Positions 13,636 through 53,512 of a stretch of DNA of 64,000 nucleotides are shown one piece after another. This DNA is from Escherichia phage vB_EcoM_EC001: sequence record MN445185.1; one strand, given 5' to 3'. The notes under the pieces were generated by a model, which saw only the letters and a list, made by a program, of their open reading frames with translations, was not told the origin of the DNA and made no database searches. Within the stretch, counting starts at the first letter, position 1. Each line of letters begins with the position of its first letter. Both the position numbers and the translations under genes were made by a program.

Positions 13636-14358
13636 ATGTTTCGCACCATTTTATTTCTTCTGGTAGCAGTGACCACATTCAACAGCAACGCTTCTTACCA
13701 GTCCACCAGTAACAAACATCAAAAAGAATTTGTCCTTATCCAGGACCAGTTCAATGAGATTAAACCTCTCATCGTCTCTGCATCTCGAAAACAAGGCGTA
13801 CATGCCGGGATGCTTGCGACCACCATTTACCGCGAATCCCGTTTTAATAAAAACGTGGGTAAGAATAAATCGAGCAGTGCTAGTAGTGTTGTCCAAATGA
13901 CGACAGGTACTAAACGCTCCATGATACGTCTGTATGGGAAACAACTTAACATCCCAAAGAACGCAGACCTTAATAAACCGAAATATGCTGTACAGCTTGC
14001 TGCTGTTTACATGAAACACATCGAGGATCATCTGACAAAACAACTCAAACGCAAGCCGAGCACAGCCGAAATTGCATTAGGCTACCGCTTCGGTGAGAGC
14101 GCTGCTGTTGCGATGATTAAAAAGAAATCATCGGTCGGGAAACGCTGGATGGACAGCTACCGAAAAGACGCAGCATTCTACGGTGCGAAAATGACGCCAC
14201 CGAAAGCTGAAACACGTCAGCTTGCTTTTGCGAAGGAAGACCGCGACCAACGCGTCGCTGAGCTTCAGAAAATCTGGGATACGCTGTACACCAAAATATC
14301 ACCTGCGGCCGGTACACTACTGGCAAATAACACTATCATGAAAGGAGCATTGCTTTGA
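13636..14358 (+). CDS. secreted protein, possible lysozyme-like/lytic transglycosylase (240 aa)
   Basis: Signal peptide; loose SLT-like segment YRESRFNKNVG…SVVQMTTGT; preceded by a 14-codon upstream ORF. Confidence 0.55.
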   Translation: MFRTILFLLVAVTTFNSNASYQSTSNKHQKEFVLIQDQFNEIKPLIVSASRKQGVHAGMLATTIYRESRFNKNVGKNKSSSASSVVQMTTGTKRSMIRLYGKQLNIPKNADLNKPKYAVQLAAVYMKHIEDHLTKQLKRKPSTAEIALGYRFGESAAVAMIKKKSSVGKRWMDSYRKDAAFYGAKMTPPKAETRQLAFAKEDRDQRVAELQKIWDTLYTKISPAAGTLLANNTIMKGALL

Positions 14359-25366: not shown

Positions 25367-26290
25367 ATGGACAGCTTTCTTTTTGATTTGGCAGAATCGG
25401 TAAATGTAGATGTAATCGGTATGCGCGAATCCCCGAGTAATTTCTTAAACGGTCTTACTAAAATCGACGAACGTGTGAAATCCAGAAGTGGAGATCCCGC
25501 CATCATCGAGCAATACGCAATAGCCCATTGTGGCGAGATAGGCCAGCACTTTATACCGATTGAGGCGTTCCTAAAGAACTGCTTCGCCGAAGAATGCACC
25601 GCAGACTTCCTGTCTCTTGCCTACGGCTGGCGATACGGGGGTATCCAAATGGAATTTGATCTTAATATTTTTGAACAAGTTCTACTTGGCGACGTTCTCA
25701 CTGAGATACCACGCAGCTGGATAGACAAGATTCCCGGTTGGGCCGTCTCCTTTTCAGTGTGCTATCGCGCTAAAGATATCGGTATCCAAGAAAAGACTTA
25801 CGTTTTCGGTCGGCGAATGTTTAAAGGGAAAGATTGTTTAACAATGATGATTTTTGGAAAACGTATCGAGGGGGAAACCTTTGAAATCGTGGACGTGGGT
25901 GACGGCTTTGTATCCTTGCGTGTGGCGGAAACTGGTACGCCGGCCAATGAGAAAACGTTACGCATTGTCGGCGCTACCATGTTTACATTCTCACTGATCC
26001 CGCACAACCCTACACCCGTCAAACTGAGACAATTAACTGGAAAGAAACGTATCGCCAATTACCACATTGAACCAAAATCTAAACCGACTGTCCTCTCCAC
26101 CGTAAAAGCACAAAGCGAGTATCTTGAAGAATTTGATACTGATACGGAGAAAAGAACACAAGGTAGCAGATGTGCGCATATGCGTCGTGCACACTGGTGT
26201 ACTTACTGGCTCGGTCCACGTGACGGGAATCGGACAAAGATTTTGAAATGGATACCGCCGACATTTGTCAACGGTTCTAAATGCAAATAA
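25367..26290 (+). CDS. hypothetical protein (307 aa), Cys/His-rich C-terminus
   Basis: AAAGGAG SD preceded by TTAATCGACCATTA motif; C-terminal RCAHMRRAHWC…SKCK could bind metal (speculative). Confidence 0.65.
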   Translation: MDSFLFDLAESVNVDVIGMRESPSNFLNGLTKIDERVKSRSGDPAIIEQYAIAHCGEIGQHFIPIEAFLKNCFAEECTADFLSLAYGWRYGGIQMEFDLNIFEQVLLGDVLTEIPRSWIDKIPGWAVSFSVCYRAKDIGIQEKTYVFGRRMFKGKDCLTMMIFGKRIEGETFEIVDVGDGFVSLRVAETGTPANEKTLRIVGATMFTFSLIPHNPTPVKLRQLTGKKRIANYHIEPKSKPTVLSTVKAQSEYLEEFDTDTEKRTQGSRCAHMRRAHWCTYWLGPRDGNRTKILKWIPPTFVNGSKCK

Positions 26291-41449: not shown

Positions 41450-41846
41450 TTACGATGAATACGCTGATCGTTTACTGGTCAACAATATCGTCTGGGAAGA
41501 CCACGGTCTAATGCCATGGCATCTGAAATTCCTAGCGGAGCGTTCAGAACAATGCGGTGGTTTGGAGTTCGTACTTACCGACACACCAATTCCGGTACCT
41601 CACATTGCGCCGGTAGAAAATTTGTACTTCTTCGATGCTAATGTGAAGTTATTACAGCAGGTACTCTATACGCATGATTGGCGTGGCGGTTGTCAGTTCC
41701 CAGAGAACGTTTTAAAGCTCTCTGAACGCTTCGGCACCGACATTGCGTACTGTCAAACGTTCCCAAAAGACTTGGGACGAAACAGCGTGGTGCTGTGGTA
41801 TTACCCTCCGGTAGAAGATATCGTAAAAGTGATTATCGAACGCTAA
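41424..41846 (+). CDS. hypothetical protein (140 aa)
   Basis: Start moved from track ORF 41409 to ATG 41424 (GAGGCG SD); ends at a bidirectional terminator. Confidence 0.55.
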   Translation: MAKKLFTVDYDEYADRLLVNNIVWEDHGLMPWHLKFLAERSEQCGGLEFVLTDTPIPVPHIAPVENLYFFDANVKLLQQVLYTHDWRGGCQFPENVLKLSERFGTDIAYCQTFPKDLGRNSVVLWYYPPVEDIVKVIIER

Positions 41847-41860
41847 AAAATAAAAGCAAA

Positions 41861-41900
41861 CGAGTACCCCGTTAGGGGTACTCGCATTACTTATTTTTTT
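41861..41900. terminator. bidirectional intrinsic terminator between convergent genes
   Basis: CGAGTACCCC-gtta-GGGGTACTCG; T-run downstream, AAAAAATAAAAGC upstream. Confidence 0.8.
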
Positions 41901-41902
41901 TG

Positions 41903-42454
41903 TTACGCTTGAGCCATGTCGGAAATGTCATAAACCAGACCATTCAACTCAGTAACGGTAATCAGTTTACTGATATCGACACCATCGCTCGGAACTTCGG
42001 TCAAATAAACCTCAACCGTACCTGTCCACGCCAGCGACTTTCCATTGAAACGCAGATTGTGTTTCGTGGAGGAAGTCATTGATTCTGTCGCGTAAATCTC
42101 GGTTGCGTCGATTAACCAATTGTATTTGGTTCGCAGCAAGGGAACAAGATCGGCAGCAGTCGACACGCCGGTGCCATCGACAGACAACACGACGTTCTCA
42201 AACAAATGAGCTACGTCCAATCGACGATAAGTAAGACCCATCTTACCGAACGTACCCTTCTCAATGATACCAGAAACATCAAGGTTGGTGTTCAGTCTGG
42301 TGTATTGCTCTGGGTCAGGATCGGCTGCGGTGATGTGTGCCGGGTTACCGAACGACAATTTATCGATGGTCACGCCCTTACCAGTCAGTCCAGGATTCTG
42401 AGACATGATGAGATCGTAAACCAACTCTTTTGCGGTTTTTCCAAATAAACTCAT
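41903..42454 (-). CDS. hypothetical protein (183 aa), possibly virion-associated
   Basis: Last gene of a minus-strand three-gene block; GAGGTAG SD; ends at the bidirectional terminator. Confidence 0.6.
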   Translation of the reverse strand: MSLFGKTAKELVYDLIMSQNPGLTGKGVTIDKLSFGNPAHITAADPDPEQYTRLNTNLDVSGIIEKGTFGKMGLTYRRLDVAHLFENVVLSVDGTGVSTAADLVPLLRTKYNWLIDATEIYATESMTSSTKHNLRFNGKSLAWTGTVEVYLTEVPSDGVDISKLITVTELNGLVYDISDMAQA

Positions 42455-42476: not shown

Positions 42477-44738
42477 CTATCGCGCTTGTGGTAGGAAAAT
42501 GTTCGCGATTTGTCGTGCTGGTATGATATCTAACGCGGCGTTGACGATGCTGCCCTGTGACCAGGCACTTGCCCAGTTCTGCGCCCAGATAGACGCGTTG
42601 ATTTTAGCCTGCGCGATGCCGTTGGTACGCTCGTAAAGCGTGGCAGCGCCCAACACAGACATAAATTCACTGAACTTGTTATCATCATCAAACACACCAA
42701 TATCAGTTACAATCGGCATGTACATAACACGCGACAGGTCACGAATAGTTACCTGTATATCACACGACAACGGCAGACCGTCAGCACGCCAACCTAAACC
42801 ACCTGTACCGAACTGGAGACTCAGGTTAGTTACCATGGCGTTACGCATGGAATAACGACCGCGAGAATAGCACTCCAGATAGAACGGGTGTGTAAACGAT
42901 TGTTTACCGGTTGCTAACGGACAAACTGCCGCTAACCAGAACGACAACGGGACAATCAGATCCTGGAACACATCTAAGTCGTTACCCGACCAACAGCGAA
43001 GGGGAATGCTTAGCGAGATATCGTCACCTGAGGTGTCTGAGGAGTCCCACACTTCCGGGAAGTCAATCACTGACGAGTTGTACAGCGACATAATCCCTGA
43101 TAAATGCAAGAAATCGAGTGCGCCTGTAAAGGCGGACTTCAACCCAGTAATGAGACCATCGACTGCGTCGAAACCAGTCTTACCACCAGAGAGGTTTACT
43201 TCCAAAGAACGTGCTTTCTGTGTGGCGGAGTTAACCGTGCCAGAGATTTCAGGTTCTTTGGTGGTGTTGGAGAACGAACGCCCTACGGTATCACGTCCAT
43301 CAACACGCCAAGTAATCCACTGCGAACCATTGCGTATCTCCGAAGCGATGTTCGAAGTTAACCCATCCATAGCGCCTTCTAAAATATCGATATAGTCTTT
43401 GAAGACGCTACCGACAGATTCTTTCTGGCCTTGGTCCATCCAGTTTTCAATCTTCCCAATGTCGAGATTATTCTCATCCATTGAGTTTGCTTCGGTCTGA
43501 CTTTTAGCAACCTGAGCCTGGTTCTTTTCAACCTGTGCCATACGCTCGGCAAGCTTTTTACGTTGCGCATCACCTTCGTTTTCGAAGTTTTCAGCCTTAC
43601 CCCCTTGTGACTGAGCATCCTGAATGCTGCCGTTCATCCCTGCTACCAGTTCGTCTTCTTTGTTGTCGACGTTTTCAAAACCAGCATCGTACCCTTTACC
43701 GGCTTTGGCTACGTATTCAAGGTTACGTAAAGAAACCTCGTACTGCGCAGCTTTCTCCAAATGGGTTGTTGAGTACGTCGCTTCCAGATAGAAGTTTCGC
43801 AAACGACGAGCCATGTCCTCTTCGTTACTCGACTCTTTACGAATTTTATCGATGGTTTTCGCCTGGTAGTTGGCTAATGTTTGGTAGCGGTTAATCATTC
43901 GATAGATATCGAACTCACCATCAGCTGTCCAGATTTCTGGCAGCATGGAGTACCACTCTTTGCGGTCGCCGTTGTACTTATTAGCAGTACCGCCTTTCTC
44001 AGACCCATCTACAGCATTAGCAAGCTGGAAAGTCCCTAACACACCCGTTGGCACCAATCGGCGATAAACTAACTGGGTGTTGACCATATTCTGCACAGCG
44101 CGCAGATACAAGTGCATTGTCGGTTTCACGTAGTAGTAGCGAGAAGTCTGCTTGTTCAGCACCATCTTCAACATACGTGGTGTAATTAGAATAACCGCAA
44201 AGGCAACCGTACCTACTGCGGCCCATATTGCTGCGGCGGCAACATACGTCCCCATCGCACGTAACATACCTGGGTAGTCACCTGTGCGTGCCAGATACGC
44301 TAGGTTGGAATCGTACATATTCGCGAAGAATGCAGCTACCCCGATATATCGAGGTTTACCGAAACGACAATGAAGATAAAAACTGTTTTGGTTAATAGCT
44401 TCGTAATAGAAAGTCCCTAGACGATAGGAACCACGTTGGTCTTGACCTTTAACGTACTTTGAGTACGAGCCACGACCTGCATCGGGTTGTGCAAAAGCAC
44501 CTGTTGAACTCGGATCAGCAAACATCGTAAACTGCGGCGGCGCATTTAACGCTTGCGAACCACCCATCGTGGTATCTTCAAACGAGAGCATCGCGTTAGA
44601 GTAACGACGCAAACCCAGGAAGCGCTCATCGCGCTGTGCGGTTGTACCGCCAAACAGGCCGGTTACCCATCCTGAATCTTTTAGTTGTCTTGCTTCCACG
44701 TAAAACCTCTCTGTAAGATGATTAGGGGGTGTTGCCAC
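42477..44738 (-). CDS. hypothetical protein (753 aa; GTG start, uncertain), possibly virion-associated
   Basis: Long minus ORF directly downstream of the giant gene; alternative GTG at 44699 with better-spaced GAGAGG SD; hydrophobic stretch near aa 150-185. Confidence 0.75.
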   Translation of the reverse strand: MATPPNHLTERFYVEARQLKDSGWVTGLFGGTTAQRDERFLGLRRYSNAMLSFEDTTMGGSQALNAPPQFTMFADPSSTGAFAQPDAGRGSYSKYVKGQDQRGSYRLGTFYYEAINQNSFYLHCRFGKPRYIGVAAFFANMYDSNLAYLARTGDYPGMLRAMGTYVAAAAIWAAVGTVAFAVILITPRMLKMVLNKQTSRYYYVKPTMHLYLRAVQNMVNTQLVYRRLVPTGVLGTFQLANAVDGSEKGGTANKYNGDRKEWYSMLPEIWTADGEFDIYRMINRYQTLANYQAKTIDKIRKESSNEEDMARRLRNFYLEATYSTTHLEKAAQYEVSLRNLEYVAKAGKGYDAGFENVDNKEDELVAGMNGSIQDAQSQGGKAENFENEGDAQRKKLAERMAQVEKNQAQVAKSQTEANSMDENNLDIGKIENWMDQGQKESVGSVFKDYIDILEGAMDGLTSNIASEIRNGSQWITWRVDGRDTVGRSFSNTTKEPEISGTVNSATQKARSLEVNLSGGKTGFDAVDGLITGLKSAFTGALDFLHLSGIMSLYNSSVIDFPEVWDSSDTSGDDISLSIPLRCWSGNDLDVFQDLIVPLSFWLAAVCPLATGKQSFTHPFYLECYSRGRYSMRNAMVTNLSLQFGTGGLGWRADGLPLSCDIQVTIRDLSRVMYMPIVTDIGVFDDDNKFSEFMSVLGAATLYERTNGIAQAKINASIWAQNWASAWSQGSIVNAALDIIPARQIANIFLPQAR

Positions 44739-44747
44739 CCCCTACGA

Positions 44748-47700
44748 TTAGCTTGCTTTCCGACTTACGTTTAACGACGGTGTCGGTTGGGTTATTTCCT
44801 GCCTGCGTGCAGCTGAGCCCGGAGGAGCCACATTTGCCGCTTGCTGGATACTACCACCCCGTGTGTCGTTTGCCGCTCTCGGATTTGATTTCAAAATATC
44901 ACGAATCTCTTTCAAGTAATCGCGAGACTGAATCAGTACCTTGAGCTGCTGAACATCTATCGGGTCACCATTCAGCGTTGGCGTCGATGCTGTAGCATCA
45001 GAAGTTGGGGCGGCAACTGGACGAGCTGCTGCGTTAACCTGCGCTTCCGCGCCTGCTTTCACTTTAGCAACATCCGTTGCAGACAATCCTTCTGCTGCAG
45101 CTTGCGACGCTACGGTTTCGGCTGTTGTTGAGGCATCGGATGTTCCGGAACCACCTGTAGTTGGTGTAGGTGCTGCTGGTCCTACATTACCTGCGGCGGT
45201 AGCCATTGCATCTTGTGCCGCCATGGCCCCTTTCTGCGTCAATGCGTCATCACGACGATTAGCATTATCTGCCGGCAGGTTATCTGCTGGCGACAGACTC
45301 GGATCATTAGCGGCCGGTGCACCCATTGCTGCTGCCGGGTTGGTTGGTGAATTAGGCGACAAGCCTGCAACCATATCCTTCGTCTTACTCGGATCGGCAG
45401 CGACTTCGTTGGCAGAAATTGCGCCCATACGGCGGTTCAGTTCCTGAATAACCCCATCCACGCTACGTATACGACCGTTGCTGTAGAAGACGTTGGCATT
45501 CCCTCTCAATATTGCGGATGTAATCCCAGGAGCACTCGATGCCGCCATATTCGGATTACGCTTCCATGCTTCCAGGAATTTCTTACCGCCGCCCGCACCC
45601 AGGAAGTGATACAGATAAGCCACGGCTGGAGGTGGTGCTTTACCACCCAGGTCACGCTGTGCTTGTTGGATGTTGTCACGAATGAACTGTACACCCAATA
45701 TAGCATTCGCCCACGGGTCCATCTGGTTAACACGCGGAATACCGAACTTCCGCGAATACCCCTTCATCATCCCGTCCCACGTACCGTCAATAAACTGGAA
45801 CAACCCAGACGCCGAAGCATACGGGTTTTTAGCGGTGTAGTTAAATCCGGACTCCGCCTTAGCCATTGCTAACGCCACTGCAGGTGGCACGCCCATCATG
45901 TTCGCCGCATCGGTAATCAATGCTTTGATATTCGGAACGTTCAACGCACCCTTTCTACCCAACATTTCTATCGGGTATTTTTCAGCCAGTGACTTATAAT
46001 CACCGTCTTTCACATCACTCAGGTTAATCGAAGACGAACCAGTGGTCATTGCAGCGTAGTTCCGCACACCACCAACCGCATCGACGACTTGACCCAAGTT
46101 ACCCGGCACACCACCACTCGTACCCGATGGAATGTAGCCTGAGGCGCGAGCACCGTCAGATGACAAAGAATCTCCCGAACTGATGTTCGAGTCTTCTTCA
46201 TCTTCATCGGTGACTTCCAGAGAACTGCGGTTCTTGTTACGATCCTTCCAGCGCGCACGCTTGCCATTATTTCTAATGGCTTTAATCATGTTACGCACGG
46301 CAAGGTCAGCTTCTTTTGACAACAGCTTCAGCGTTTCCAGCTCGGCTTTAATAGACGATGGGTTCGTGTTAGCCTCACCCCCTAATGGGTTGATATTCAC
46401 TTCCCACACCGACTGTCTTATACCACCTTTCAAGCTGTAGGCTGTTGACATCATCAAGCTGATTTCGTACAGGTAACCACCAGTCAGCTTCAAGTTCAGC
46501 GGATCGGCTGTTGGCAGGTAACGCTTCACCCCAACCAAATACGTCATGAATACCGGTAAGAAACGGTCAAAGAACCACCGCTTCAAACGATCTTCTTTCG
46601 GTGTACCGATAGCGTCTGGAACCATCGAGGCGATTGCTTTCTTCCAATCTCCTTTGTAGCTTGCGGTTTTCACGTCAATGTCTTTGATGACGTTCTTCTC
46701 GAATACCGTGATCAACGTGCGGGTGGCGTTATCGATGGTGGTAAAGCCGTAAGTCTTCCAACGCACCGATTCCATCGCATTCATGTCTTTCTGGTCGAGC
46801 ACCGCATTCCAGTCTACCTGAATCTGAACCTGCTCTGTTCCGTCTTCCCAACCCTCTACCTTCGCCAGATTTTTATTACGTTCGTTATCCAACTGTCCAA
46901 GTTTGTTGATAGCTTCATCAACGCCCGCGGACTTAATCCCCTCCACGGCCGGTGCCATTCCGTACTTACGTGCTTTCTTATCGTCCATTCTGGACTTGAT
47001 TGCACGCTCGACTTCATTCTGCACTTCCATAACCTCTTCACCGCTCAAGAACTCCTTCGGTGTAAAGGTTACAACGTCCCAAGCTTTCGAGAAGAAACCT
47101 TGGTTGACTTTGCGTGGGTCTGTTAACGAAGAGAACGCTTTTGCATCCTTAGTCATCTTCATTTTGTTGAAGAGAGTCAGCATGTCCTCTTTCGATACTT
47201 TCTTCGCATCGCCGACGTCAGCCAACTGGATACTGTTCGGCATTGACTTCAGTGCCGTAATCCAGCGGAGATAAATCGGAATAAAGCGCTGAAGCATAAA
47301 CGCTTGGAAGGCCAACATCTCGCCTTTTTCCTCAACGTTAATACCGAACCCTTCAGCTAGCTTCTGAACGTCTTTTCCACTTAGCCCGCGGAGACTGGCT
47401 TGGCCATCTTCCGCGTAAGACACATACTCACGCAATGCGTCTTCTAAGTAACGCGCTTTCGCCCCGTCGTCCGACGACCACTTATCGTAATCACGGAAAC
47501 CGTACTGAGCTAAACGCATCTTATCCAGGTACTGGGTATAGGTAGTCGTTGCAATCCTGTACGCGGCGTAACCAGCCGCAGCGATCGCACCACCGATAAG
47601 AATTGCCGGCCAACCCACCGCAGTCACGACGGCAGATGCCGCAGTTGCCACAGCGGACACCGCGGGTGCCGCCAAACGGGTTACTGCGAACTTACCGACA

Positions 47701-50700
47701 TTCCACGCAGCCTTACCTAAAAGACCTACTGGTTTTAACACGCCCCATTTCGTGATAGAACCGAGTATATTACCCACAGTTCCCAAGATACTGACGATGG
47801 GACCGATGATAGGTAAGCTTTTCACCATATCCCACAGACCGCCAGATTTCCCTTTGGAGCCCTGCGCTTTCTCTTTCTTCTCCTTACGTTTCTCACGCCA
47901 ACGTTTGAAGAAGTTAAGGTAATCGCGTTTTTCATCACCTTCAGGCGGCTTGTTACGTTTACCGAACTTCGCAAACATGGTGCGAATAATGCCATCGTCA
48001 CCACCTGCACGGGATACTGATTCGCGCATGGTGTTAAACCATGACATCTCTTGCAAGCCAATCATTCGGTCCAAGCGTTCGAATAACCTTGCGCCTGCAG
48101 ACTTGGCGGCATTCTTCCCTTTGTTAATAACCCTCCCTGCTGCATCACGGGCGGTCTCAAGGTCTTCCTTCGCATCGCCGTAGACTTTACGGCCAGAAAG
48201 GCCACCTTTCGCGTTCAAATGGCTGCGATAAAACTCAGCAACATCATCGTCGCGTCCAGCCAACCGACGTTCAACTTCGTAACGTGTAGCAATGTCGTGT
48301 CGTGCTCCACGATATCCATCGAGCATATCCCCAGCCCGGCCTCGGAAACCACTGAACCAACCACGCAGGCGGTCACGTCCACGACCAAAGAACGCTTTTG
48401 TTCTTGACCAACGTCCACCAAAACGTTCAGACAGTGACGCTTTCGCGCGATCATACGCCCCGCGTACTGCACGACCGATCGTACTACCGCCACCCCCGAC
48501 GCCCTTCTCCATTTCCTCTGTCCAACTTTCGTCTTCCGGATCTCCCGGTAAACGTTGGTTCAACAGTTTATAGATACGGATAAGGATGTGGTTGGTTTTC
48601 TTGCCGGTTGATGAGAAGAGACTGAAACCACCGCCCCCACCATCTTTACGGCCTTTCCACCAACGCGTCAGTGGGTTGTCGGTAATCATGTCTTTCAGAC
48701 GATCGACACCACGTTTCGCAAAACCGAGCACTTTACCCGGTAAGCTCGTTACACGGTTGAACGCTTTCTGGAGACGTGTCTTTTCTTCGCCTTCCGGAAT
48801 CTCGTTCAGCCAGTCCTTAATCTTACCAACGATGCTGCCCGCTTTCGGTGACAGGAAATCCAGGAACCTTTTCGGTAGCTTAGCCACCTTATTAAAGCCT
48901 AAGCCAATCTTACTGGCCAGACCTTGGGTCAGTGCTTGGATTTTCCCGCCTTTATAGTAGCGGAGTTTACCCGCAGCGGCTAAGTCAGCGGCTGCTAATA
49001 TCAGATTACCTGCGGAGTCAACAATATCACTCCCCAGCTTGATGTCGTCCAGCGTTTTCAGCTGAACCATTTTACCATCAATGACCTGATAGTATTCTCC
49101 AGCTTCCAGACGTGCACCTTGCAGAACAACATTACCGTGGTCATCGTAAACGTCACGGATACCCAGTAGTCCTTTACCGAAAGAGCTTACCGCTTCAAAG
49201 CCACCACGGACACTACCGCTGATAAGGCCACGCATCCGGGTTAAGAAACCAGGACCTTCTCCGCCACCCATTCCTGCGACTTTACCGCGTGCCCAGCCAC
49301 CGAACTGGTTCAGTTTATTCCAGGCACCCTTAACACCACGTTTCGCAAAGCCACCGATTCCTGCTGCGGTGTCGAACAACACACCACCCCAACGACGAAT
49401 AAGCCCATCTTCACCGATGATAATACGACGGCGTTTACCGCCACCGCTACCACCACCAGGACGAGGTGGTCCCATCTCTTCGTCACCAGAACCAGCACCC
49501 CCTGCTAACGAAGCCAGGAGAACCCCTTCTTCGTCCATACTTCTGACGTGTTCCAGAATTTTCTGGAGGGTGTCACTGTTGTTATTACCCCGAATCGCTT
49601 CGATGATGCCGTCAAAGTTATTCCGTGGCGCTTCTTCGCCGCGGTTACGTTGACTCAACAATTCAACAAAGTTAGTCGAGGTTTCACCGTAGAGAACTGC
49701 GGCTAACTGCCGAGGCGACATTCCGCGGCCTTTACCACCGCCACGTAAAGCCGGCGGCAACGACGTGTCATCGGCACCACCATTTACCCCTTGGTTCATT
49801 CGGCGCAGATAGTCGCCTAACGCCGAACCGTTTTGCAGCTTACGTTGAATCTCCTGCTCACGAGTCAACGCACGACCGCTGCGTGTCTTACCCATTGCCA
49901 AGTCATTAAACAAGGTATAGGGATCGGACAGGTCTTTATCCACGCCGAAAGTGTCACTCTTCGCGTCGTAGTTAAAGATACCCGCATCGCGCAATGCTCG
50001 CTCACCGTAAATATTCACCGCCTCGTCGATAATTGCCTGACGTTGGGTGATAGATGACTGCACTGTGGAGATTTTGCGGGCCAGCTCGTTACTTAATTCG
50101 TTGCTACCGCCGACCAAGCTATCAGAATGCCCCTGTAACGCTTCCTTAATGCGTTCTGCGGCGTTTCCTGGCATATACCGATGAAGATGCATCGGGTCTT
50201 TCAGAATCGCTTCTACGTCGAATGCGCGGCCCTGCGAGGCTCGCGACTCGATATAGTCGGCGAGATGCTGTCGATCCTTCTGCGAGAGCGTTTTGCCGCG
50301 GTCAACAAAATCCACAGTGCTGTTAATGGAATTTTGGAGACGCAGGCGTTGTTCATCGTTTGCAACCGCCTTGCGTACGCGGTTACCGACCACTTTGCGG
50401 TCTACGAAACCACGGCTGGTGATGTCATATTCCAGGTCGGCATGTTCGCCATAGCCACGACGGACAGATTTGTTAATCTCTGCCAGCCAGGCAGGAATAA
50501 CTTCAACCAGGCTAAGATATGCTTTACGGTCAAACTTCGCCGAACGGCTTAACGTTTCGCCATTACGCTCGTCAAGGAAGGCTTTCTCGCGGTTTAGCGG
50601 TTGGACAATACCGAGTTCATTCAATACCCGGAACAAATCCGCCAACGGCCCTTGCGTTTCGCCTGCGATAGCTGAGTTCGAGATAGAGGAAAGATTACCA

Positions 50701-51869
50701 AAGGTGAACGCGCCTTTCTGCAGGCGTTTCATGACCTCTGGATTTTTCTCCATCTCCTCACGAGTCCATTTCTGGAGTTTCTCGATTTGTGGGCCGAGTA
50801 GTTTCTTCGCAAGGAATCCGCTACCCCACGCAGTTGCTTTATCACGAGCATTTGTTTTGCGACGTTCAGCAGTCAACGAAGAGCTGTCGCTCATGCCGAA
50901 ATCGTCTTCAACACCCATGCCGAGAACAGACTCTAACAAACCACGACCTTCGCCAAATATACCAGAAATCTTCTTCTTGGTATTTTCGCGAATCATGTCC
51001 ATAAACCCGTCAGCATAACGCAACGGGTTCATCCATTCCGCAGCCTGGCGTTTAACGTTCGCCCAACGGACTTCTGAGAAATCTTCCTTCGCGTAATCCG
51101 GCAATGCCGTGTTCTTCACGATGGCTTCTAAAGCAGGCGTATTACGATCGAACTCCGACTGCTTCATCTTCACGATGTCTTGGATGGCAAACAGGGTACG
51201 GTATTGCAGTTCGAGTTTCTTACGCTCGATGTTTAAGAATACCCCACGGCTTAACCCGGTTAGCAGGTTAATGTCTTTCGCCATCCCAATCATGGTTTGG
51301 TGCATTGCATCCGCACGCATCTCTTTGATGCTGTCGCGGAGCTTATCCTCTACCATGCGGTCCTGCAGCTGACGTTGTTCATCGGCATCCTTTGGCACAC
51401 CTGAGAATACGTCGCCCAGTTCACGATCCATCAATGCCTGATTCGGATCGTAGTTCTGGTAATCTAACTGGTCAGATTTTGACCACTTGTCGATGCGCTT
51501 AGTAACTGCATCCGGCAAGTATTTCTTCATCGTCGGACCGAGTTGGCGCGCTTGCATCTTCAGCGTGCGCTCGGTCTTCACAAGCTCCCCTTTCGTATGG
51601 GCGTAAATGTCCTTTGCTGCAGCTGCCGCTGACTGATAGCCCTCGTATGCATCAGCTGCCGGCTTAGGCATCCCCTTGAGGATAACTTGGTCGCGTTTCC
51701 CTTCTGGCCAGATAGTTGACAACGCCGACTTCCTGGCAACATTCAGGGTACTGAGTATCGGGCTTCGTTTTTTCTCGTCTTTGGGACGGGGTGGTTCACC
51801 GAAATCATCCCAGTCGTCGAGTCTATCTAAATCGATATCATCGAAACCGTCTTTGCCTCTTTTTGCCAT
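44748..51869 (-). CDS. giant protein (2373 aa) with lytic-transglycosylase (SLT) domain; candidate virion/ejection protein
   Basis: 7.1-kb ORF; SLT active-site motif …AMAKAESGFNYTAKNPYASASGLFQF… ~375 aa from C-terminus (nt ~45500-45960); Gly/Arg-rich segments; long hydrophobic segment (…AVATAASAVVTAVGWPAILIGGAIAAAGYAAY…); Ala/Pro/Thr-rich C-terminus. Confidence 0.9.
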   Translation of the reverse strand: MAKRGKDGFDDIDLDRLDDWDDFGEPPRPKDEKKRSPILSTLNVARKSALSTIWPEGKRDQVILKGMPKPAADAYEGYQSAAAAAKDIYAHTKGELVKTERTLKMQARQLGPTMKKYLPDAVTKRIDKWSKSDQLDYQNYDPNQALMDRELGDVFSGVPKDADEQRQLQDRMVEDKLRDSIKEMRADAMHQTMIGMAKDINLLTGLSRGVFLNIERKKLELQYRTLFAIQDIVKMKQSEFDRNTPALEAIVKNTALPDYAKEDFSEVRWANVKRQAAEWMNPLRYADGFMDMIRENTKKKISGIFGEGRGLLESVLGMGVEDDFGMSDSSSLTAERRKTNARDKATAWGSGFLAKKLLGPQIEKLQKWTREEMEKNPEVMKRLQKGAFTFGNLSSISNSAIAGETQGPLADLFRVLNELGIVQPLNREKAFLDERNGETLSRSAKFDRKAYLSLVEVIPAWLAEINKSVRRGYGEHADLEYDITSRGFVDRKVVGNRVRKAVANDEQRLRLQNSINSTVDFVDRGKTLSQKDRQHLADYIESRASQGRAFDVEAILKDPMHLHRYMPGNAAERIKEALQGHSDSLVGGSNELSNELARKISTVQSSITQRQAIIDEAVNIYGERALRDAGIFNYDAKSDTFGVDKDLSDPYTLFNDLAMGKTRSGRALTREQEIQRKLQNGSALGDYLRRMNQGVNGGADDTSLPPALRGGGKGRGMSPRQLAAVLYGETSTNFVELLSQRNRGEEAPRNNFDGIIEAIRGNNNSDTLQKILEHVRSMDEEGVLLASLAGGAGSGDEEMGPPRPGGGSGGGKRRRIIIGEDGLIRRWGGVLFDTAAGIGGFAKRGVKGAWNKLNQFGGWARGKVAGMGGGEGPGFLTRMRGLISGSVRGGFEAVSSFGKGLLGIRDVYDDHGNVVLQGARLEAGEYYQVIDGKMVQLKTLDDIKLGSDIVDSAGNLILAAADLAAAGKLRYYKGGKIQALTQGLASKIGLGFNKVAKLPKRFLDFLSPKAGSIVGKIKDWLNEIPEGEEKTRLQKAFNRVTSLPGKVLGFAKRGVDRLKDMITDNPLTRWWKGRKDGGGGGFSLFSSTGKKTNHILIRIYKLLNQRLPGDPEDESWTEEMEKGVGGGGSTIGRAVRGAYDRAKASLSERFGGRWSRTKAFFGRGRDRLRGWFSGFRGRAGDMLDGYRGARHDIATRYEVERRLAGRDDDVAEFYRSHLNAKGGLSGRKVYGDAKEDLETARDAAGRVINKGKNAAKSAGARLFERLDRMIGLQEMSWFNTMRESVSRAGGDDGIIRTMFAKFGKRNKPPEGDEKRDYLNFFKRWREKRKEKKEKAQGSKGKSGGLWDMVKSLPIIGPIVSILGTVGNILGSITKWGVLKPVGLLGKAAWNVGKFAVTRLAAPAVSAVATAASAVVTAVGWPAILIGGAIAAAGYAAYRIATTTYTQYLDKMRLAQYGFRDYDKWSSDDGAKARYLEDALREYVSYAEDGQASLRGLSGKDVQKLAEGFGINVEEKGEMLAFQAFMLQRFIPIYLRWITALKSMPNSIQLADVGDAKKVSKEDMLTLFNKMKMTKDAKAFSSLTDPRKVNQGFFSKAWDVVTFTPKEFLSGEEVMEVQNEVERAIKSRMDDKKARKYGMAPAVEGIKSAGVDEAINKLGQLDNERNKNLAKVEGWEDGTEQVQIQVDWNAVLDQKDMNAMESVRWKTYGFTTIDNATRTLITVFEKNVIKDIDVKTASYKGDWKKAIASMVPDAIGTPKEDRLKRWFFDRFLPVFMTYLVGVKRYLPTADPLNLKLTGGYLYEISLMMSTAYSLKGGIRQSVWEVNINPLGGEANTNPSSIKAELETLKLLSKEADLAVRNMIKAIRNNGKRARWKDRNKNRSSLEVTDEDEEDSNISSGDSLSSDGARASGYIPSGTSGGVPGNLGQVVDAVGGVRNYAAMTTGSSSINLSDVKDGDYKSLAEKYPIEMLGRKGALNVPNIKALITDAANMMGVPPAVALAMAKAESGFNYTAKNPYASASGLFQFIDGTWDGMMKGYSRKFGIPRVNQMDPWANAILGVQFIRDNIQQAQRDLGGKAPPPAVAYLYHFLGAGGGKKFLEAWKRNPNMAASSAPGITSAILRGNANVFYSNGRIRSVDGVIQELNRRMGAISANEVAADPSKTKDMVAGLSPNSPTNPAAAMGAPAANDPSLSPADNLPADNANRRDDALTQKGAMAAQDAMATAAGNVGPAAPTPTTGGSGTSDASTTAETVASQAAAEGLSATDVAKVKAGAEAQVNAAARPVAAPTSDATASTPTLNGDPIDVQQLKVLIQSRDYLKEIRDILKSNPRAANDTRGGSIQQAANVAPPGSAARRQEITQPTPSLNVSRKAS

Positions 51870-51898
51870 AATGTTTCTTCCAATTCAGGAGCTTAAAA

Positions 51899-53512
51899 GT
51901 GAGAAAGCTAAACTGGGTTGACTTTTACTTGTTAAACGTCAACAAGTCCCTGGTGTCGCATTTAAAACCAGTTACAACAACAGACACCTTTCAGGGACTG
52001 ACGAAAAACTTTCACCCTGAAGGACTGTATTCAACCGAAATTTTTGGCCTCACAGGGAGCGAAGCACGAGACTCAACGTTCTCGTACATTGATATCAAAC
52101 TGGATATCATTTCGCCGACCGTTTGTTTGGCATTGTTCCAGCTGAAACAGCTGTACGAAGAAATCTGTTCCGGGAAGCGATTCGCTATCTGGAATGAGAA
52201 AGAAAAAGATTTCGAGCCGGCTCTGCCCAGTGATAAAGGTGCAGACACCGGCTTCAACTTCTTCCTACGCTACTACGAACAACTGACGCCAGGACGCAAC
52301 GAATCAATGCGTCGCGACGAGACAGTCGATTTCTTCAATAAGTTCCGTCCGGTCAGTCTCAGCCGCTATGTGCTGGTTCTACCTGCGGGATTACGTGATT
52401 TGGTCATTCGTCAGGATGGCCGCGACCAAGAAGAAGAGATTGGCGGACTCTACCGCCGTCTGATTTCTCTGGCACGTGCAGTCCCCGACCGCAGTACGCG
52501 AACGGAACTGACTGACCCGGTTCGCTGGAAGCTCCAACAAACCTTTAATGACATCTGGATGTACTTCTTCAACATCCAAGACGGTAAAGGTGGTTTTGCG
52601 CGTCGTAAAGTGACGTCACGTAAGTTAATGAACGGTACGCGTAACGTACTGTCTTCATTCTCAACCGGTTCCAAGGTCATGGGTCGCGAAGATGCGATTC
52701 GTCCAACGGATACCCGTATCGGTTTGTACCAAACCCTGAAGGCGTTACTGCCTGTGGCTCAATACCACATCCGTGAACGTTACCTCAGTAACATCCGGGC
52801 AGGGGATGGCAACTTATACGGCGTTAACACCAAAACACTCAAGCGTGAGTTCCTGGAAGTCTCCGGGCGGGTGTATGACCTTTTCACTACCGACGATGGC
52901 ATCGAAACACTCATCAACAGAATGGAAGCGCGCGAGCTTCGACATAAACCGCTGATGATTGATCCGGACCATTACGTGGCATTAATCTACCAAGACAAAC
53001 GCAGCTTCAAAATCTTTTACGATATTGAAGACCTGCCGGAAGGACGTGACCGTAAGCTTGTCCGCGGACTGAGCTTAGCGGAACTCCTCTATTTGTCAGG
53101 TTACGATATTTGGAATGACTACTTCTCGTTCATCACGCGTTATCCGGTTACGGGACGCGGTTCGACTTACTCCTCGACCATAAGATTGGAGACCACCACT
53201 TCTTCCCTCTATTTGCATGAACTGGAAGACGATTGGGTCACGTTAAAAGAGAAGGGTGCAATTAGCTTCCCTGATCGTACCGTGAAAACCTTTGTGGAAT
53301 CCATGGCACCACATCCATCCCGATTAGGTGGATTGGGTGGTGACTACGATGGTGACACCGGCTCAGCAAACTGCCCGATGTCAACCGAAGCGCTCGAGGA
53401 AAATCGGAAGTGGGTCAGTTCGAAAAACTACTGGTTTGCAACAGACGGCAGTTTCAAAATCAATCCGGTTAACAACGTGATTAAAAGAACGACTGCTGCG
53501 CTGTTGAAATGA
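51899..53512 (+). CDS. RNA polymerase beta-prime-like subunit, N-terminal-half type (537 aa, GTG start)
   Basis: AGGAG SD 7-8 nt before GTG. In canonical order: SYIDIKLDIISP (~GHIELAAPVAH), RRKVTSRKLMNGTRNVL (~LLGKRVDYSGRSVI), TRYPVTGRGS (~NRAPTLHRLG), GDYDGDTGSANCPMSTEAL (~NADFDGDQMAVHVPLSLEA) ~50 aa before the stop. Confidence 0.65.
   Translation: MRKLNWVDFYLLNVNKSLVSHLKPVTTTDTFQGLTKNFHPEGLYSTEIFGLTGSEARDSTFSYIDIKLDIISPTVCLALFQLKQLYEEICSGKRFAIWNEKEKDFEPALPSDKGADTGFNFFLRYYEQLTPGRNESMRRDETVDFFNKFRPVSLSRYVLVLPAGLRDLVIRQDGRDQEEEIGGLYRRLISLARAVPDRSTRTELTDPVRWKLQQTFNDIWMYFFNIQDGKGGFARRKVTSRKLMNGTRNVLSSFSTGSKVMGREDAIRPTDTRIGLYQTLKALLPVAQYHIRERYLSNIRAGDGNLYGVNTKTLKREFLEVSGRVYDLFTTDDGIETLINRMEARELRHKPLMIDPDHYVALIYQDKRSFKIFYDIEDLPEGRDRKLVRGLSLAELLYLSGYDIWNDYFSFITRYPVTGRGSTYSSTIRLETTTSSLYLHELEDDWVTLKEKGAISFPDRTVKTFVESMAPHPSRLGGLGGDYDGDTGSANCPMSTEALEENRKWVSSKNYWFATDGSFKINPVNNVIKRTTAALLK

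Follow-up and report, generated by a model that had tools for sequence, protein, structure and literature searches.

What role does a single phage protein of 2373 residues play when it joins a peptidoglycan-cutting domain to glycine-rich stretches and a long hydrophobic segment? This question is raised by a giant gene in the window, which here means the whole 64,000-nucleotide stretch of the Escherichia phage vB_EcoM_EC001 record (MN445185.1) that was analysed. A sequence-only reading had described a 2373-aa open reading frame, divergent from an RNAP-like gene and at the head of a three-gene minus-strand block, and had interpreted its product as an injected cell-wall-degrading or tape-measure-like protein. 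The open reading frame, the divergent arrangement and the three-gene block are all present as described, and the local features are the following.

44748..51869, minus strand: giant open reading frame of 2373 aa with an ATG start; ortholog of SPN3US gp239 and phiKZ gp181 (PHROG 3201)
51870..51898: divergent intergenic spacer of 29 bp, with the RBSs of the giant gene and of the virion RNAP beta gene
42477..44738, minus strand: second gene of the block; homolog of phiKZ gp182 and of Goslar gp203
41903..42454, minus strand: third gene of the block; DUF7941 virion protein, equivalent to SPN3US gp237
41860..41885: strong bidirectional hairpin of terminator type (stem of 11 bp with 7 GC pairs) at the end of the three-gene block

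The start codon of the giant gene is backed by the family alignment, in which nearly all members have Met1 and the consensus opens with MAKK, and the RNAP beta-like neighbour starts with GTG at 51899, directly beyond the spacer. Since DNA comparison shows the gene conserved over its full length in 24 phage records, and protein comparison in 60, the observation is far beyond chance. The giant gene is the first of its minus-strand block, and therefore no chaperone gene or programmed-frameshift pair lies upstream of it. A scan for sigma-70 promoters returned fewer sites than shuffled sequences did; transcription in these phages is carried out by RNA polymerases of their own.

The window is an SPN3US-like Salmonella jumbo phage of the genus Seoulvirus. 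Over its full length the giant gene has 97.8% nucleotide identity to its counterpart in JN03 and 96.8% to that in SPN3US, and its product is 99% identical to the JN03 (99.3%) and SPFM homologs. It is the same gene as SPN3US gp239 (YP_009153533) with the same neighbours (gp238, gp237, gp240, and gp241), from which it differs by a few percent of nucleotide substitutions, being nearest to JN03 and not to SPN3US. The protein also matches PHROG 3201 with E=0, covering the profile to its end. At greater distances, tblastn of the giant protein against phiKZ-type genomes matched the SLT domain alone. BLASTP against the 2237-aa giant protein of a Phikzvirus (phiKZ-type gp181) returned two collinear blocks, with aa 12-603 aligned to 26-631 (E 1e-14) and aa 1383-2148 aligned to 1297-2047 (E 6e-29), the second of which spans the hydrophobic region.

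The gene order around the giant gene is likewise shared. In this Phikzvirus and in Noxifer alike, the giant gene is divergent from a pair of vRNAP beta genes and precedes a gp182-like gene, and the gene numbers given in the Goslar paper place the giant gene in the same order (gp203/gp205). The gene that follows the giant gene encodes ~660-750 aa in the compared phages. The likeness to phiKZ gp181 that had been suspected from the sequence is thus borne out by two collinear blocks together with a common gene order. phiKZ gp181, a structural peptidoglycan hydrolase of 2237 aa, is collinear with our protein in the N-terminus and through the hydrophobic block, duplicated domains and SLT domain; it has identical synteny, falls in the same length class of 2200-2400 aa and has the hydrophobic block before the SLT domain in the same order. 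Outside the SLT domain the two proteins are ~20-25% identical, and the Gly-rich middle and C-terminal tail are not alignable. The giant protein is the SPN3US gp239/phiKZ gp181-type giant tail protein of chimallivirus-like jumbo phages, and the gene is one already known, being a re-identification of this published protein. Its parts, as we delimited them, are listed here from the N-terminus.

49920..51869, minus strand: conserved N-terminal region, aa 1-650; long alpha-helices for the most part, collinear with phiKZ gp181 aa 26-631
51087..51116, minus strand: near-invariant motif KNTALPDYAK, aa 252-261, from the family alignment
47835..49802, minus strand: Gly/Arg-rich helix-plus-linker middle, aa ~690-1345; poorly conserved
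47550..47828, minus strand: hydrophobic block, aa 1348-1440; two to three predicted membrane helices
47109..47543, minus strand: repeat domain A, aa 1443-1587; signature R-x3-YG...E...RFxP
46380..46790, minus strand: repeat domain B, aa 1694-1830; homologous to domain A
45426..45938, minus strand: SLT/lytic transglycosylase domain, aa 1978-2148, from Pfam, phmmer and the AF2 model
44748..45422, minus strand: Ala/Pro/Thr-rich C-terminal tail, aa 2150-2373; poorly conserved

The internal lytic transglycosylase that gave the gene its first interpretation is present. Pfam SLT (PF01464) matches aa 1984-2072 with E=1.3e-9 and 38.1 bits against a cutoff of 21.3, and matches from NCBIfam were SLT-like only and all sub-threshold. 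The motif AKAESGF...SASGLFQF occupies aa 2002-2026 and contains the catalytic Glu2006 (codon 45852-45854), which lies 367 aa from the C-terminus, close to the ~375 aa that had been estimated. A phmmer search of the PDB retrieved phiKZ gp144 (3bkh, 9xps_S) at E ~2e-15, with E2006-S2007 aligned to the catalytic motif of gp144. In the AF2 model of aa 1441-2373, the mean pLDDT is 78.6 and exceeds 90 over most of aa ~1925-2180. The absence of a lysozyme-like fold at aa 1975-2110 had been named as what would count against the domain; the fold is there, as judged from Pfam, the gp144 match, the AF2 model and structural comparison, and it is the sole structural similarity to T7 gp16. The domain is 26% identical to the stand-alone SLT protein of the window. 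In contrast to this pair, the SLT domain of phiKZ gp181 is very near to that phage's own endolysin gp144 (E 3.5e-57).

Variation among homologs is informative as to the use of this domain. Among the 90 homologs examined, Glu2006 is kept in 83 of the 85 that bear an SLT domain. A GH19 domain replaces SLT in three of the 90, a variant that is present in the cultured Ralstonia phage RSL2, and M23 or VanY domains have been added in others. Judged from these sequence comparisons, the conservation of the catalytic residue, the exchange for GH19 and the additions of M23 and VanY point to selection for cell-wall hydrolysis as such.

A family alignment (MAFFT FFT-NS-2, 87 full-length sequences) and a conservation profile of 60 distant homologs give the geometry of the remainder of the protein. 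Conservation is concentrated in the N-terminal ~650 aa and from the hydrophobic region to the SLT domain, and the Gly-rich middle and the tail are poorly conserved. Within the N-terminal motif, N253, L256, P257, and K261 do not vary among 46 sequences. The AF2 model of aa 1-1200 is of low confidence (pLDDT 61) and is 66% helix, with many helices of 40-55 residues, which is consistent with a long, mostly alpha-helical region spanning the tail; a better-defined folded part (pLDDT >80) was modelled at aa ~360-690. A Foldseek search with the N-terminal model against the PDB gave chance-level helical matches only, all with E of at least 0.8.

The low-complexity regions on either side of the SLT domain are of the kinds that had been reported from the sequence. 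Ahead of the domain, aa 801-900 contain 30% Gly with a net charge of +12, Gly runs occur at aa 710, 805, 809, 868, 1077, and 1125, and a small beta unit was modelled by AF2 within the middle region at aa ~905-965. After it, aa 2201-2300 of the tail contain 29% Ala and 21% Ser+Thr; in this tail, a helix at aa ~2304-2328 (nt 44886-44960) and the residue Arg2370 are conserved. The hydrophobic segment of Ala, Val and Gly is present as well, but its extent had been underestimated at ~50 aa, as it consists of two parts (aa 1348-1373 and 1399-1440) within a longer block. The predicted membrane helices of this block are rich in Gly, Ala and Ser and are preceded by a strongly basic stretch. In nearly all homologs the block keeps its position at ~55-62% of the protein length.

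Between the hydrophobic block and the SLT domain we identified a duplication. Domains A and B are each ~140 aa, are confidently folded in the model and carry the signature R-x3-YG...E...RFxP, and hhalign matched one to the other with a probability of 98.9% (E 1e-17; controls, E of at least 0.13). Self-BLAST of the giant protein, whole and in 150-aa chunks, gave no significant internal repeats; the A/B duplication is visible with family profiles only. The profile of the duplicated domain matched 1,330 clusters among 1.84 billion representatives, and the best 150 of these clusters consist almost entirely of proteins 2000-3650 aa long, in which the domain occurs two or three times at a constant relative position. 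On this sample of the best 150 matches, the domain looks specific to the giant-protein family.

Total length in the family ranges from 2197 to 2799 aa with a coefficient of variation of 4.4%, at identities down to ~20%. Most of this variation arises in a single low-complexity segment immediately ahead of the hydrophobic block (the equivalent of aa 1103-1437), which measures 199-447 aa. Cysteine is absent from the giant protein, whereas the composition of the window's other ORFs would predict ~23 residues (Poisson P ~1e-10), and homologs have 0-6 Cys each. We found no earlier report in the literature of the duplication, the conserved membrane block, the cysteine depletion or the swapping of muralytic modules, and these observations refine a known family.

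With respect to function, SPN3US gp239 is reportedly the 'tail tape measure protein' of Thomas et al. It is named as a 259-kDa tail tape measure protein, was detected in purified SPN3US virions and was either lacking from tailless particles or reduced there by more than 10-fold (PMC5105663, PMC10052503, PMC5694885). Virion association, which had been set beside the lysozyme-like fold as decisive, is thereby documented by mass spectrometry for an essentially identical ortholog of the SPN3US group. A Tn-seq study found phiKZ orf181 to be essential and called it a 'likely' tape measure (PMC12676376). Two near-complete virion structures, the 2026 phiKZ atlas (40 proteins) and the Goslar model, do not place the protein and mention neither gp181 or its homolog nor any tube-lumen density, and among PDB chains none match phiKZ gp181 besides the paralog gp144.

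The downstream gene places the locus at the tail hub. Its product (42477..44738) matches phiKZ gp182 with E 1e-40 and PDB 9xqs_K with E 2e-62. In the 2026 phiKZ atlas, gp182 forms a hexameric ring, termed the 'spacer', that separates tube initiator and hub (PMC13250141), and Goslar gp203 belongs to the 'tail tube initiator complex' of the Goslar model. The counterpart in SPN3US, gp238, is an essential tail protein. The giant gene is thus directly followed by a gp182/gp203-type hub spacer gene.

Considerations of length agree with a ruler only in part. As a helix rising 1.5 Å per residue, the N-terminal 1345 aa would reach ~200 nm, as compared to a phiKZ tube of 43 rings at 37.7 Å, or 162 nm (range ~162-170 nm), with a 68 Å lumen (PMC13250141). 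In Goslar the tube has 46 rings. The whole protein, if fully helical, would measure ~356 nm, about twice the tail length, so that only part of it can be a ruler. Curated tape-measure families in Pfam, NCBIfam and PHROG gave no match to the giant protein.

Tape-measure proteins of T5 (Pb2), mycobacteriophage TM4 and staphylococcal phages combine a helical ruler with hydrophobic or fusogenic segments and a C-proximal hydrolase, reside in the tube lumen and are expelled at infection (see also the references in PMC8570332 and PMC5380687). The logic that we propose for the giant protein is the same as that of Pb2-like muralytic tape measures, although no sequence relationship to them was detected. 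It differs from Pb2 in belonging to a contractile tail and in carrying SLT instead of a metallopeptidase, and from Pb2-like proteins in being twice the size and in having a family-specific duplicated domain. The likeness to T7 gp16 that had been suggested extends to the SLT fold and the general idea of an ejected lysin; beyond these it fails, as gp16 carries SLT at its N-terminus and resides in the head core, whereas here the SLT domain lies towards the C-terminus and the ortholog is associated with the tail (PMC10052503), and no wider similarity was found.

We favour a multifunctional tape-measure-like protein that would serve as a ruler, as an ejected membrane-inserting segment and as a peptidoglycan cutter, with a probability of about three in four, and the original interpretation as an injected cell-wall-degrading or tape-measure-like protein is supported overall. 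An ejected pilot or envelope-penetration protein only, like T7 gp16 or phiKMV gp36, would travel in the tail or the head and be released to open the peptidoglycan and span the envelope, with tail length set otherwise; we consider this reading unlikely. The depletion of the SPN3US ortholog from tailless particles ties it to the tail and not to the head core (PMC5105663, PMC10052503), the gene adjoins that of the hub spacer, the strict conservation of length throughout the family is hard to explain without a length-dependent role, and reports on these phages name no other candidate for a tape measure. It is also conceivable that the SLT domain is mainly structural and is no working enzyme during entry, as the paralogous phiKZ gp144 forms a wedge at the neck with a structural role between whisker, terminator and sheath in the phiKZ atlas. 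We hold this to be very improbable given the retention of the catalytic Glu-Ser in the 83 of 85 homologs and the exchanges and additions of muralytic domains; moreover, the lytic domain of phiKZ gp181 is reported to be highly active in vitro (PMC5380687, PMC8700119).

Two further readings come from the literature and the databases. Reviews citing Briers 2008 and Fokine list phiKZ gp181 as a needle-like cell-puncturing device under the baseplate (PMC5380687). This older view is largely refuted and retains hardly any probability: in the 2026 atlas gp164 is the spike and gp163.1 its tip, with gp101 as the hub and gp174 as the pin, so that the needle or spike is gp164/gp163.1 and not gp181, and the models of the giant protein contain helices and a lysozyme fold but no beta-helical spike. 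The label 'putative tail fiber protein' in many GenBank records and in PHROG 3201 would make the protein a fibre, the least credible of these roles, and we reject it. We identified neither a fibre-like fold nor a receptor-binding domain in a protein made up of alpha-helices, some of them of membrane type, together with an SLT enzyme, and the fibres of phiKZ and Goslar are assigned to other proteins. The label 'tail fiber protein' therefore has no support for the giant gene and appears to be an inherited annotation; the SPN3US GenBank entry YP_009153533 carries it for gp239 as well.

For the giant protein as a tape-measure-like protein, we infer a location in the tube lumen, a ruler function, ejection and membrane insertion, and we hypothesize the following course of events. 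A few copies would lie inside the ~68 Å lumen of the tail tube, where the largely alpha-helical N-terminal ~1340 aa might act as a ruler or scaffold during tube polymerisation, with the C-terminal end near the hub and adjoining the gp238/gp182 spacer ring. Once the sheath has contracted and the spike is gone, the tail would expel the protein into the periplasm, where the SLT domain could cut peptidoglycan locally. The Gly/Ala-rich hydrophobic helices may then enter the inner membrane and help to form a conduit for DNA and co-ejected proteins. Depletion of cysteine and long flexible linkers would be suited to a protein that has to traverse a narrow channel and enter an oxidising periplasm. Of the phage components, the giant protein is probably the earliest to act on cell wall and inner membrane.

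A more speculative role, to which we assign a low likelihood, is that after ejection the membrane block and the duplicated R-x3-YG...RFxP domains, beyond making a channel for DNA, anchor or nucleate the early phage infection (EPI) vesicle, a membrane-bound compartment around the injected chimallivirus genome and vRNAP. If so, the giant protein would be the physical link between the tail and the EPI vesicle. The origin of the vesicle membrane has been described as unclear (bioRxiv 10.1101/2024.03.24.586471), and we found no protein in the literature with an assigned role in anchoring or nucleating the vesicle.

More generally, in a widely studied group of jumbo phages no protein is larger than the giant protein, and its phiKZ ortholog is essential. 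The domain map covers the invariant motif near the N-terminus, the segment of variable length, the conserved membrane block, the A/B duplication, the exchangeable muralytic module and the depletion of cysteine, and provides targets for mutagenesis, focused cryo-EM and cryo-ET on the setting of tail length and the opening of the envelope.

Minor observations concern the two smaller genes of the block. The DUF7941 family, to which the third gene belongs, has been proposed to form baseplate-anchored filaments (Goslar preprint), and the SPN3US annotation begins the second gene at the position equivalent to 44699.

The lytic module of the giant protein (44748-51869, minus strand) varies across its family. 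In the variant set (homologs P0041/P0043/P0044, P0082, P0083 and P0084), three members carry GH19 in place of the SLT module, and an extra M23 domain was identified in one member, a 2799-aa protein, an extra DUF5675 in one member and an extra VanY in one member. In P0076, a Val occupies the position of the catalytic Glu.

We also identified a second protein with an SLT domain in the window, which stands alone:

13636-14358, plus strand, 240 aa, matching Pfam SLT at E 3e-6

This protein retains the catalytic E-S and shares only 26% identity with the SLT domain of the giant protein. This pair is unlike that of phiKZ, where the domain in gp181 is closely paralogous to the endolysin gp144 (E 3.5e-57); phiKZ gp144 is also present at the virion neck. 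The SPN3US counterpart of the 240-aa protein is named as a 'transglycosylase' (YP_009153492).

The giant protein contains no Cys among its 2373 residues, where the window's other ORFs (15,251 residues) would predict approximately 23 (P ~1e-10), and its homologs contain between 0 and 6. In the middle region, the family consensus includes two copies of the motif D(I/V)Y..G..V..G..L..G.Y......I....DI.G.I.D..GN, one clear copy of which is found in the window's giant protein at aa 905-965 (window ~48975-49157), where structure modelling predicts a small beta unit (pLDDT ~80). The giant gene is fragmented in several SPFM-series records (among them SPFM5, SPFM8 and SPFM20), lying in 40 pieces at 35% coverage in SPFM5, while the alignment of the SPFM20 protein covers only 3% of the giant query. 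This fragmentation, together with the 3% alignment, suggests that these assemblies are rich in frameshifts, and not that the gene truly varies.

The giant gene heads a minus-strand block of three genes, for which we identified the following boundaries and downstream members:

51870-51898, spacer between the virion RNAP beta gene and the divergent giant gene, their start codons only 29 bp apart
42477-44738, minus strand, gp182-like gene (homolog of the phiKZ hub spacer ring protein), with a GTG start at 44738 in the ORF list
41903-42454, minus strand, third gene of the block, encoding a DUF7941 protein of 183 aa
41860-41885, strong bidirectional terminator-like hairpin, with an 11-bp stem including 7 GC pairs

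Since the ribosome-binding sites of both divergent genes occupy the 29-bp spacer, each promoter must lie within the coding sequence of the opposite gene or further away. At the other end of the block, the hairpin, which has a T-rich run on the minus strand, separates the convergent ends of the block and of a plus-strand gene ending at 41846.

The GTG start of the gp182-like gene lies 9 nt past the stop codon of the giant gene and would yield a product of 753 aa, compared to 740 aa from the equivalent of the start annotated in SPN3US (44699). A further match of the gp182-like domain (aa ~465-680) is PDB 36za_rp (E 5e-56). The name of this chain, 'Capsid decorator gp77', is odd given its homology to a baseplate hub spacer or tube-initiator protein, and may reflect misnaming or reuse of the fold. 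DUF7941 proteins have been proposed to form long, flexible filaments anchored to the baseplate for host recognition (2026 Goslar preprint); the window's copy aligns to only the first ~176 of 276 profile positions.

Scans of the whole 64-kb window identified no tRNA genes (ARAGORN) and no tandem repeats (Tandem Repeats Finder). Relative to SPN3US, whose annotation has no counterpart of the following ORF at the same position, the window contains an insertion of ~1 kb:

25367-26290, plus strand, ORF of 307 aa

No Pfam domain was found in this ORF, which is shared with Escherichia phage Lh1B (100% identity) and JN03 (99.7%) and has homologs at 32-44% identity in Erwinia jumbo phages. The gene is apparently accessory and variable.
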